From the IMG/VR virus record IMGVR_UViG_2563367002_000001: a stretch of DNA of 38,579 nucleotides. One strand, given 5' to 3'. A model generated the notes under the pieces. That model made no database searches and was not told the origin of the DNA. It was given only the letters and a program-made list of their open reading frames with translations. Position 1 is the first letter of the stretch. Each line of letters starts with the position of its first letter. Of the stretch, positions 6,775 to 9,568 are shown piece after piece. Both the position numbers and the translations under genes were made by a program. The stretch comes from a virus (taxonomy: Duplodnaviria; Heunggongvirae; Uroviricota; Caudoviricetes).

Positions 6775-7455
6775 TCATCGCCATTGCTCCCCAAATACAA
6801 AACTAATTTCAGCCAGTGCCTCGTCCATTTTTTCGATGAACTCCGGCACCATCTCGTCAAAACTCGCCATGTACTTTTCATCCCGCTCAACCACGACATA
6901 ATGCAGTCCTTCACGCTTCATACGCGGGTCATAGTTGGCAAAGTACCAGGCATCTTTTCGCGTCACCCACATGCTGTACTGCACCTGGGCCATGTAAGCC
7001 GATTTTATGGCCTCGAAACCACCGAGCCGGAACTTCATGAAATCCCGGGAGGTAAACGGGCATTTCAGCTCAAGGCCGTTGCCGTCACTGCATAAACCAT
7101 CGGGAGAGCAGGCGGTGCGCATACTTTCGTCGCGATAGATGATCGGGGATTCAGTAACATTCACGCCGGAAGTAAACTCAAACAGGGCTCTGGCGTCGTT
7201 CTCGTACTGTTTTCCCCAAGCCAGCGCCTTAGCGTTAACTTCCGGAGCCACACCGGTGCAAACCTCAGCAAGCAGGGTGTGGAAGTAGGACATTTTCATG
7301 TCAGGCCATTTCTTTCCGGAGCGGGGTTTTGCTATCACGTTGTGAACTTCTGAAGCGGTGATGACGCCGAGCCGTAATTTGTGCCATGCATCATCCCCCT
7401 GTTCGACAGCTCTCACGTCGATCCCGGTACGCTGCAGGATAATGTCCGGTGTCAT
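6775..7455 (-). CDS. exo: Lambda exonuclease (Red-alpha), 226 aa
   Basis: Matches lambda Exo along its length ([42 protein letters not shown]...). Start overlaps the bet stop. Confidence 0.95.
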
Positions 7456-7911
7456 GCTGCCACCTTCTGCTCAGTGGCTTTCTGTTTCAGGAATCCAAGA
7501 GCTTTCACTGCTTCGGCCTGTGTCAGTTCTGACGATGCGCGAATGTCGCGGCGAAATATCTGGGAACAGAGCGGCAATAAGTCGTCATCCCATGTTTTAT
7601 CCAGGGCGATCAGCAGAGTGTTAATCTCCTGCATGGTTTCATCGTTAACCGGAGTGATGTCGCGTTCCGGCTGACGTTCTGCAGTGTATGCGGTATTTTC
7701 GACAATGCGCTCGGCTTCATCCTTGTCATAGATACCAGCAAATCCGAAGGCGAGACGGGCACACTGAATCATGGCTTTATGCCGTAACATCCGTTTGGGA
7801 TGCGACTGCCACGGCCCCGTGATTTCTCTGCCTTCGCGGGTTTTGAATGGTTCGCGGCGGCATTCATCCATCCACTCGGTAACGCAGATCGGATGATTGC
7901 GGTCTTTGCGG
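7452..7911 (-). pseudogene. bet: bet (Red-beta) 3' fragment; 5' part removed at the IS911 junction
   Basis: The frame reads ...RKDRNHPICVTEWMDECRREPFKTREGREITGPWQSHPKRMLRHKAMIQCARLAFGFAGIYDKDEAERI..., the C-terminal half of lambda Bet. It runs without a start codon straight into the IS end at 7911/7912. Confidence 0.9.
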
Positions 7912-7941
7912 TGAAGTGGTCAACAAAAACTGGCCACCGAG

Positions 7942-9089
7942 TTAGAGTTTTTTCCAGTATCGATTTTCCGATTCGTTTGGTGGTAACCCACCATTATATT
8001 CGTGCGGTCTTAGTGCGCTGTAATATCCAACGATATAGTCCGTTATTGCGTGAGCTGCATCGCTGAAGCTTACATAGCCCGTCGCCGGCACCCATTCGTT
8101 CTTCAGACTCCTGAAGAAGCGCTCCATTGGGCTGTTATCCCAGCAGTTTCCACGCCGACTCATACTCTGCCTGATCCGGTATCTCCACAGTAACTGCCGG
8201 AACTGCCTGCTCGTATAATGACTGCCTTGATCGCTGTGGAACATCACCCCGACGGGCTTACCACGGGTTTCCCATGCCATTTCCAGTGCTTTCATGGTAA
8301 GCCTGCTGTCCGGCGAGAACGACATGGCCCAGCCCACTGGTTTTCTTGCGAACAGGTCGAGAACAACGGCGAGGTACGCCCAGCGCTTACCCGTCCAGAT
8401 ATAGGTCACATCACCGCACCACACCTGATTTGGCTCGGTCACGGCGAACTGCCGTTCAAGGTAGTTAGGGATAGCAACATGTTCATGACCACCACGTTTA
8501 TACCGGTAAGTCGGCTGCTGACAGCTGACCAGCCCCAGCTCTTTCATGAGTCTGCCAGCAAGCCAGCGCCCCATCTGGTAGCCTCTCTGGGTTGCCATTG
8601 TGGCGATGCTTCTTGCTCCGGCAGAGCCGTGGCTGATGCCATGCAGTTCAAGTACCTGGCTGCGTAATACAGCCCGTCTGCCGTCTGGCTTTTCAGGACG
8701 GTTTTTCCAGTATTTGTAGCTGCTGCGATGGACCCCGAACACATGGCAGAGAGTGGCCACAGGATAACGCGCCCTGAGTTTCCCGATTATCGAGAACTGT
8801 TCAGGGAGTCTGACATCAAGAGCGCGGTAGCCTTTTTTAATATTTCATTTTCCATTTCAATACGTTGTAGCTTTTTCCTGAGCTCACGGATTTCAATTTG
8901 TTCCGGGGTAATAGGGGAGGCTTTTGGTGTTTTTCCCTGCCGCTCATCACGTAATTGTTTCACCCATCGCGTCATTGTGGAAAGGCCGACATCCATAGCG
9001 CTGGCTGCATCTGCCACGGTGTAATTCTGGTCAACGACCAGTTGAGCGGATTCGCGTTTAAACTCTGCGCTGAAATTTCTTTTTTTCAT
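7942..9089 (-). CDS. IS911-like OrfAB transposase (programmed -1 frameshift), copy 2
   Basis: Same A6G heptamer, mirrored to 8832-8838. The orfB frame ends at 7942. Confidence 0.8.
8787..9089 (-). CDS. insN: IS911-like OrfA, copy 2
   Basis: Protein identical to copy 1 OrfA. Confidence 0.85.
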
Positions 9090-9161
9090 TATGGCACCTG
9101 TGTTGTTCTGAGGTGAGCATATCACCTCTGTTCAGGTGGCCAAATTCAGTAAACCACTTCA

Positions 9162-9568
9162 CACATCAGCAAAACGCTATTCACGCAGTACAGCAAATCC
9201 TTCCAGACCCAACCAAACCAATCGTAGTAACCATTCAGGAACGCAACCGCAGCTTAGACCAAAACAGGAAGCTATGGGCCTGCTTAGGTGACGTCTCTCG
9301 TCAGGTTGAATGGCATGGTCGCTGGCTGGATGCAGAAAGCTGGAAGTGTGTGTTTACCGCAGCATTAAAGCAGCAGGATGTTGTTCCTAACCTTGCCGGG
9401 AATGGCTTTGTGGTAATAGGCCAGTCAACCAGCAGGATGCGTGTAAGCGAATTTGCGGAGCTATTAGAGCTTATACAGGCATTCGGTACAGAGCGTGGCG
9501 TTAAGTGGTCAGACGAAGCGCGACTGGCTCTCGAATGGAAAGCGCGATGGGGAGATCGGGCTGCATGA
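9162..9568 (+). pseudogene. ninB: ninB (NinB/Orf-family recombination protein) lacking its first ~12 codons; fused in frame to IS-derived codons
   Basis: From the IS junction the frame reads HQQNAIHAVQQILPDPTKPIVVTIQERNRSLDQNRKLWACLGDV... to the native stop, matching lambda NinB as recalled. The native N-terminus is missing. Confidence 0.85.

Follow-up and report, generated by a model that had tools for sequence, protein, structure and literature searches.

The stretch of DNA analysed here (the window; 38,579 nt, IMG/VR record IMGVR_UViG_2563367002_000001) is, judged by its sequence, a lambdoid prophage integrated at icd in an Escherichia coli lineage that includes ATCC 25922, AHB10 and C691-04A, and within it an intact insertion sequence (IS) of the IS911 type stands between a truncated bet gene and a truncated ninB gene. 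Its genes follow the lambda-type order int-xis...exo-bet, nin-Q-S-R-Rz and cos-Nu1-A...J, beginning at the integrase stop codon (position 1) and closing at the end of the final prophage coding sequence (position 38579) by comparison with ATCC 25922, with both att sites and the icd junction falling outside. The icd prophage of E. coli ATCC 25922 (NZ_CP032085.1, 218789-265489; L001 where its own positions are given) was used as the intact reference sibling and the phage lambda genome as a second reference, by DNA and protein alignment; domains were assigned with Pfam profiles, and gene labels were taken from the Prokaryotic Genome Annotation Pipeline (PGAP) annotation of identical sibling sequence. 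The ATCC 25922 prophage shares the integration side and gene order of the window and is 99.97% identical to it outside the stretch that the window lacks, with no differences at window positions 1-3820 and 5072-7911 and 9 single-nucleotide polymorphisms (SNPs) across the 29,418 bp that follow the junction on its right.

An earlier reading of the letters alone (the sequence-only reading) had held that bet runs into the IS with only its C-terminal part left and that ninB has lost its start, and alignment of 7452-7911 and 9162-9568 to lambda bet and ninB fixed both breakpoints to the base. The bet remnant (bet') encodes lambda Bet residues 110-261 (151/152 identical), covers only positions 122-195 of the 198-position Pfam RecT profile and breaks off at lambda 32488 (L001 9200/9201). 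The ninB remnant ('ninB) corresponds to residues 13-146 of lambda NinB, with identity at 133/134, and its Pfam NinB match runs over profile positions 12-131 of 131; its truncation stood, with the loss now placed at exactly 34 nt (11 codons and 1 nt) where about 12 codons had been estimated. At the DNA level, window 5775-7915 aligned to lambda 30347-32488 with 97% identity, and window 9162-9568 to lambda 40678-41084 with 98% identity. As both flanks are 97-100% identical to known intact genes, these matches lie far beyond chance. The converse arrangement, an insertion in the reference instead of a deletion in the window, was excluded, bet and ninB being truncated open reading frames (ORFs) of proteins otherwise 99% identical to those of lambda.

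The IS at this joint is the second of two copies in the window. Its right inverted repeat (IRR) tip adjoins bet', reading ...TTTGCGG/TGAAGTGGTC (a slash marks each joint), and its left inverted repeat (IRL) tip adjoins 'ninB, reading ACCACTTCA/CACATCAGC; the junction region as a whole reads ...GGTCTTTGCGG/TGAAGTGGTCAACAAAAAC...(1250 bp)...GTAAACCACTTCA/CACATCAGCAAAACGC... The triplets outside copy 2 are CGG and CAC, which agrees with the earlier observation that a target-site duplication is missing. Copies of the same element in sibling prophages do make 3-bp duplications (ATT, CAT, CAT and GTC), so that the lack of one around copy 2 reflects a rearrangement and not a different element. In intact sequence a 3-nt CGG precedes both breakpoints (TTTGCGG/TAAA in bet and CTCCGG/CACA in ninB). 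The transposase gene of copy 2 points away from ninB, and an ORF starting at a GTG inside the IS (9113) reads in frame into 'ninB.

Both IS copies encode an OrfA of 100 aa and, in a simulated -1 frameshift fusion, an OrfAB of 382 aa, with an A6G slippery motif at IS position 324 and the Pfam domains HTH_Tnp_1 and rve (DDE) in the IS protein. The IRR of both copies matched the published IS911 IRR oligonucleotide at 36/36 positions (PMC2909936 Table 1), and the IRL carries the same TGAAGTGGT tip, in keeping with IS911 terminal repeats, which end in 5'-TG...CA-3'. The 36-bp IRR, the OrfA and OrfAB lengths, the A6G motif and rve are thus all shared with IS911, the IS3-family element of Shigella and E. 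coli that serves as the copy-out/paste-in reference. In contrast to IS911, copy 2 is 100% identical to both ISEc52 copies of ATCC 25922, which PGAP names 'IS3-like element ISEc52 family transposase', and it lies without a duplication. The name IS911 given by the sequence-only reading is therefore supported by the IRR and the ORF lengths but not by the PGAP label, and 'IS911-type' is the safe name.

The lambda alignment jumps at copy 2 from 32488 to 40678, leaving 8,189 bp (32489-40677) without counterpart in the window. In lambda this interval holds the 5' part of bet, gam, kil, cIII, ea10, ral, sieB, N, nutL and oL/pL, followed by rexBA, cI, oR/pR, cro, cII, O with ori, P and ren. The corresponding jump in ATCC 25922 is from L001 9201 to 18573, and the 9,371 bp missing from the window (L001 9202-18572) carry gam, kil, cIII, a DUF2528 gene, ral, an ISEc52 copy with an ATT duplication, sieB, N, two morons, cI, cro, cII, O, P and ren; N was confirmed there by Pfam N_peptide (E = 1.5e-32) and cI by HTH_3 and Peptidase_S24. 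No repressor, N or replication gene is annotated elsewhere in the collinear sibling sequence. The proposals that the whole bet-to-ninB module has gone, and that the element has neither repressor, N, pR/pL nor replication genes, were both borne out, these genes being absent in the window and present in the ATCC 25922 sibling only. By these alignments the IS sits on a genuine loss of the entire immunity and replication module, not on a gap in homology, and the deletion is evidently recent, its flanks being 99.97-100% identical to the intact sibling.

Searches for the two copy-2 junctions covered 5,426 complete E. coli genomes, GTDB representative genomes, IMG/VR and the Joint Genome Institute (JGI) metagenomes; neither junction was present in the complete genomes, and no exact match was obtained in the other three collections. 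The IS-NinB fusion ORF was found in two contigs of public assemblies. The one inspected (L026, from human-gut metagenome ERZ920779) was 100% identical to window 9038-19568 (10.5 kb), including 124 nt of the IRL end and the IRL/'ninB junction. A 139-aa ORF called in the Bet remnant was also called in DLP12-type prophages and in a bet gene split by IS21 and, as it occurs in these other contexts, is not specific to the window junction. Look-up of a 129-aa NinB fragment returned 21 public short-read and metagenome contigs, and 10/10 of those inspected began 1-3 nt from window 9177, which is 15 nt inside 'ninB and beside the IS breakpoint. This fragment was rejected as junction evidence, the contigs only starting about 15 nt inside ninB, in what we grade as an edge artefact; the shared starting point would also suggest a recombination or mosaic boundary among lambdoid phages near 9177.

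Closest to the window were the prophages of AHB10 and C691-04A, which were identical to it at every shared position outside the IS (1-3821 and 9162-38579; 33 kb), including all nine sites at which ATCC 25922 differs, with THO-006 and FDAARGOS_1255 carrying the ATCC allele at 3/9 of those sites. In AHB10 and C691-04A one IS joins the site of copy 1 directly to 'ninB, and the deletion is larger than that of the window and nested around it. The ninB breakpoint of AHB10 falls at the same nucleotide as that of the window (L002 6027/6028), and that of C691-04A lies 2 nt further on within a CACACA run (L003 6009/6010). Because the window keeps ea22 to bet' in ancestral contiguity, it represents the earlier state, and AHB10 and C691-04A represent further deletions; the shared 33-kb identity, copy-1 left junction and ninB breakpoint together suggest that the deletion grew stepwise in this lineage.

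The same element has acted repeatedly in the other siblings. ATCC 25922, which differs from the window in keeping the early region (8.1 kb), has two simple ISEc52 insertions, one in the DUF1382 gene (duplication CAT) and one in the ral/sieB gap (duplication ATT); THO-006 has a simple insertion (CAT) 17 nt from the position of copy 1 together with an IS at a ral'/'sieB deletion junction; FDAARGOS_1255 has an IS at a junction that deletes from sieB' to just upstream of cI; and GN02323 has an insertion in int (GTC) and an IS joining ea22' to 'sieB. In all, the siblings carry at least 5 further ISEc52 events (insertions or deletions) of independent origin in this early region, and at least 7 separate insertion or junction sites. 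Wherever cI survives in a deleted sibling, pL and pR survive too and stay repressed; cI was lost only in the group of the window, AHB10 and C691-04A, together with pL, pR, N, kil, O and P. In lambda biology the sole viable way to lose the repressor is to lose pL and pR with N, kil, O and P alongside.

Table 1. Positions of the retained genes, gene remnants and IS copies in the window
Feature	Position	Strand	Basis or description
int	1-1143	-	site-specific integrase beside icd; 100% identical to ATCC 25922
xis	1133-1369	-	excisionase; 100% identical to ATCC 25922
IS911-type (ISEc52-family) copy 1	3822-5071	+	simple insertion, 13 nt inside 3' end of ea22-like gene
early-left genes (ea22-like, TraR/DksA-like, DUF1382, DUF1317, exo)	5072-7451	-	0 differences from ATCC 25922
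exo	6775-7455	-	Pfam YqaJ
bet' (3' remnant, C-terminal 152/261 codons)	7452-7911	-	protein, Pfam and DNA alignment
IS911-type (ISEc52-family) copy 2	7912-9161 (1250 bp)	-	intact; sits on deletion junction
'ninB (first 34 nt gone)	9162-9568	+	protein, Pfam and DNA alignment
nin region (Dam-like methyltransferase, ninE, ninX, rusA, ylcG, Q)	9565-11784	+	collinear with ATCC 25922 and AHB10 annotation
rusA	10816-11178	+	Pfam RusA
Q antiterminator	11401-11784	+	Pfam Phage_antitermQ
holin	13644-13859	+	annotation of identical ATCC 25922/AHB10 sequence; Pfam tags on contig L026
lysozyme	13859-14356	+	annotation of identical ATCC 25922/AHB10 sequence; Pfam tags on contig L026
Rz-type spanin	14353-14814	+	annotation of identical ATCC 25922/AHB10 sequence; Pfam tags on contig L026
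cosN GGGCGGCGACCT	16710-16721	+	exact lambda cohesive-end match, 177 nt upstream of Nu1
virion module, first genes (Nu1, A, W, portal, protease, D, E, FI, FII, Z)	within 16898-38579	+	
virion module, continued (U, V, G/T, H, M, L, K, I, J, then tail-fibre genes)	to 38579 (J 32403-35879)	+	

The functions that the sequence-only reading had listed as retained (int/xis, exo, the S/R/Rz lysis genes, cos and the virion genes from Nu1 to J) were all present and collinear (Table 1). The virion module is collinear with that of ATCC 25922, with 9 SNPs, and showed 0 differences from AHB10, in which the virion coding sequences are annotated as intact except for one tail-fibre N-terminal fragment. A tail-fibre N-terminal-domain gene downstream of J (35938-36301) is flagged as an incomplete pseudogene in identical sibling sequence, and the 'complete virion module' may be one without a side tail fibre, as in lambda PaPa. 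The lambda cosN sequence was matched exactly once. At a tolerance of at most 1 mismatch, 0.2 matches to cosN are expected by chance and at least 1 match appeared in 19/100 shuffles; as chance matches are possible, support for cosN comes from its place just upstream of Nu1 and not from the match count. The late region also holds non-phage cargo, namely an OmpC-type porin gene between Q and the holin gene, an Iss/Bor serum-resistance lipoprotein gene and a gene for a small TonB-family protein (11973-13055, 14846-15139 and 15620-15946), and sitABCD lies directly outside the right end in the siblings.

Copy 1 lies in inverted orientation relative to copy 2 and bears footprints of its own. Its outside triplets, GTG (3819-3821) and GTA (5072-5074), match imperfectly; the empty site in ATCC 25922 reads CCATTGGTATCAATG, and the left junction of the copy, CCATTGGTG/IRL, is common to the window, AHB10 and C691-04A. 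The sole base that differs from ATCC 25922 in the 6.6 kb to the left of copy 2 touches the IRL of copy 1 (GTA to GTG) and is also found in AHB10 and C691-04A. Given a background difference rate of 3e-4 per base between the window and ATCC 25922, a difference at exactly this position is not a matter of chance. The GTG gives both IRL tips the same outside triplet, so that the inverted repeat extends over 1253 nt instead of 1250, and the base may be a conversion footprint or a circle-junction spacer retained from a reaction of IS ends. Within copy 1, 18 SNPs are clustered at 4395-4549 (IS positions 574-728) relative to copy 2 and all sibling ISEc52 copies, and this patch was 100% identical to a conserved chromosomal copy annotated 'IS3 family transposase', which occurs widely in E. 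coli genomes (the ATCC 25922 lineage among them) and, in most of those listed, a single time. By its sequence, the patch looks like gene conversion between IS relatives. Three lineages were struck independently by the same IS at the 3' end of the ea22-like gene, which makes this stretch a regional hot spot for insertion: at ATCC L001 5109/5110 in the window group, 17 nt off in THO-006 and 120 nt off in GN02323 (L004 4305, L030 14320).

These features were considered in relation to how the deletion may have arisen. Of the two IS-based routes that the sequence-only reading had allowed, deletion or recombination between two IS copies, the proposal that an IS marks a true deletion stood, but recombination between the window's own two copies was excluded: the copies are inverted, the segment between them is in ancestral orientation, and such copies would only be able to flip the 2.84-kb segment that separates them. 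We consider it roughly 60% probable that the module was lost by IS-mediated adjacent deletion, in one or more steps, from a resident minus-orientation ISEc52 copy. A minus-orientation IS would already have lain in the early region, at ninB nt 34 or in the ral/sieB gap that holds such a copy in ATCC 25922; transposase-mediated adjacent deletion would then have extended outward, bringing the IRR tip to bet codon 110 and the IRL tip to ninB nt 35, with the IS remaining intact and the target duplication being lost. Within the interval that the window has lost, ATCC 25922 carries an identical IS, likewise in minus orientation and with its ATT duplication, and neither junction of that copy is kept in the window. 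Copy 2 shows the hallmarks of adjacent deletion: the IS is intact, no target duplication surrounds it, and its two flanks are separated by 8.2 kb in lambda. The closest precedent comes from IS150 in the long-term evolution experiment, in which insertion is followed by adjacent deletion that leaves no duplication and often goes on enlarging (PMC11708052). Those cases resemble the window in the intact IS3-family element at the junction, the lack of a duplication and the stepwise growth, the last of these recalling the series from the window to AHB10 and C691-04A; they differ in that the precursor insertion was observed in earlier samples, where here it would have to be supposed, and in the IS group (IS150 against IS911 type).

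The same product, an intact IS with flanks from two sites and no duplication, would be expected if two extra minus-orientation copies had inserted in bet and in ninB and RecA-dependent recombination between them had then left one hybrid IS. The element has been highly active in this prophage, as its at least 7 separate sites among the siblings attest, and deletions often arise by recombination between IS copies (PMC11708052). Three events would be required for this, however, and in the long-term evolution experiment every junction of this type went back to adjacent deletion (PMC11708052). No IS in bet at the window site and no simple insertion at the ninB site was found among the 5,426 complete E. 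coli genomes, so that the precursors of such a recombination are unseen there, and neither was present in IMG/VR; we regard two-copy recombination, the chief competitor of adjacent deletion, as doubtful, though worth keeping in view. Arrival of the IS in a broken or deleting chromosome, with deletion and insertion simultaneous, would likewise leave no duplication, and the CGG before both breakpoints could have helped an illegitimate joint. This has been proposed for an IS5 case (Ngan et al. 2024), but the mechanism is hypothetical even in that source, and for IS150, of the IS3 family, every case was one of insertion followed by adjacent deletion, and a single step is very improbable here. An assembly artefact, in which an 8-kb early region between two IS copies had been collapsed into one copy, might be suspected from the IS being a multi-copy repeat and from the bet'/IS junction being seen nowhere else. 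The early region is, however, genuinely absent from the two closest complete genomes, which have the ninB breakpoint in common with the window; the IRL/'ninB junction recurs in an independent metagenome contig; and even a collapse would presuppose two insertions that were not observed. We accordingly give an artefact very little credence.

Several points weigh against adjacent deletion as set out above. The bet'/IS junction had no independent witness in any public collection searched, and no direct ancestor with an IS at either final junction was recovered from the complete genomes, GTDB, IMG/VR or JGI, so that adjacent deletion and recombination of two lost copies are inseparable by sequence comparison. 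An origin at the ral/sieB position would require two separate one-sided deletions. The silence that we propose below for Q and the late genes is drawn only from the lack of consensus promoters in 7300-9800. Finally, the ninB breakpoint of AHB10 abuts the IRR of a plus-orientation IS, whereas that of the window abuts the IRL of a minus-orientation IS. Ordinary recombination between inverted copies cannot interconvert the window form and the AHB10/C691-04A form, and duplicative inversion, IS-dimer and other homologous-recombination schemes, worked through on paper, did not yield IRR/CAC without a further precise step. To pass from the window to the AHB10 form, 5072-9161 would need to be lost precisely. 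One candidate route is slippage on the 9-nt direct repeat ACCACTTCA, found at the IRR tip of copy 1 and again at the IRL tip of copy 2; another is 'IR-targeting', in which transposase would join one IS end beside another, a reaction described for IS30 and, as stated in PMC9333248, for IS911. Neither these opposite IS ends nor the changed base beside copy 1 alters the main conclusion.

The product of adjacent deletion, or of whichever event removed the module, is best explained as a transcriptionally orphaned, non-inducible and non-replicating cryptic prophage of the DLP12 type. With cI, pL, pR, N, O, P and ori gone, there is no SOS response and no replication, and the earlier statement that the element cannot be induced on its own follows from lambda biology. 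No sigma-70 consensus promoters, including outward ones at the IS tips that might serve bet'/exo or the genes from ninB to Q, were found in 7300-9800, and no known promoter appears to be left for int/xis or Q. Lambda-type packaging requires concatemers or two cos sites, and the locus offers neither. The single chromosomal cos, the absence of replication and the lack of a promoter for int/xis or Q together argue against efficient packaging.

The sequence-only reading had also raised mobilisation by a helper phage or domestication of the late functions. A superinfecting or co-resident lambdoid phage would then supply Q, N, cII or Int-activating functions in trans and switch on the late operon and the cos/terminase functions; if this were so, the helper-dependent locus would yield particles, or else be packaged or leave by recombination, and such dependence could explain why 29 kb of late genes are kept while the early region erodes stepwise. 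The 29-kb late region is indeed intact (9 SNPs relative to ATCC 25922 and 0 relative to AHB10) and is kept in relatives that are deleted still further, the lambda cosN is exact, and Q, lysis, int and xis are intact. The recent date of the deletion, however, means that intact late genes say nothing about selection, and the same features hold for classical cryptic prophages. The element moreover has neither ori nor O or P, so that concatemers cannot form, and it has only one cos; the promoter search yielded none for int/xis or Q, and the sibling annotation contains no genes of satellite type. Both switching on by a helper in trans and the mobilisable or domesticated role that would depend on it are, to our minds, very unlikely.

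A more realistic role for the cryptic prophage, that of its classical counterparts, would be as a reservoir of Q, lysis, tail and cos modules for recombination into infecting lambdoid phages. Such phages can acquire Q and lysis genes from DLP12-type remnants in this way. DLP12 of E. coli K-12 and its relatives at the argU/ybhC site (loci L016-L025) show the same decay, with int/xis/exo and a Bet C-terminal remnant joined directly to nin genes, followed by rusA, ylcG, Q (quuD type), a porin moron, essD/rrrD/rzpD-type lysis genes, bor and Nu1, and like the window they have no immunity or replication module and share an identical 139-aa ORF in the Bet remnant. Their Bet breakpoint, carried by such prophages in many E. 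coli genomes, lies 8-13 nt from that of the window (window 7899-7911; L016-L025 about 9985-10000), a nearness with a chance of about 3% that may reflect coincidence or a fragile spot. They differ in having no IS at the bet junction and a right-hand joint elsewhere, whereas the window lies at icd and combines a complete virion module with a recent deletion.

The structural variant described here is new; the phenomenon, IS-driven decay to a cryptic remnant, is ordinary and well known. Two details, the ninB breakpoint held in common despite opposite IS ends and the converted base beside copy 1, may be traces left in nature when IS911-type elements target IS ends, which would interest transposition specialists only. 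For annotation, the case matters because tools will label such an element 'intact' from its virion genes, and it has a typing use for a clinically common lineage that includes the reference strain ATCC 25922. For the biology of lambdoid prophages, the locus provides a clean, datable example of a prophage turning cryptic, in which one active IS family removes an early region that is lethal if derepressed, in nested steps from an intact ATCC 25922-like form through the window to AHB10 and then C691-04A, while the late genes stay.

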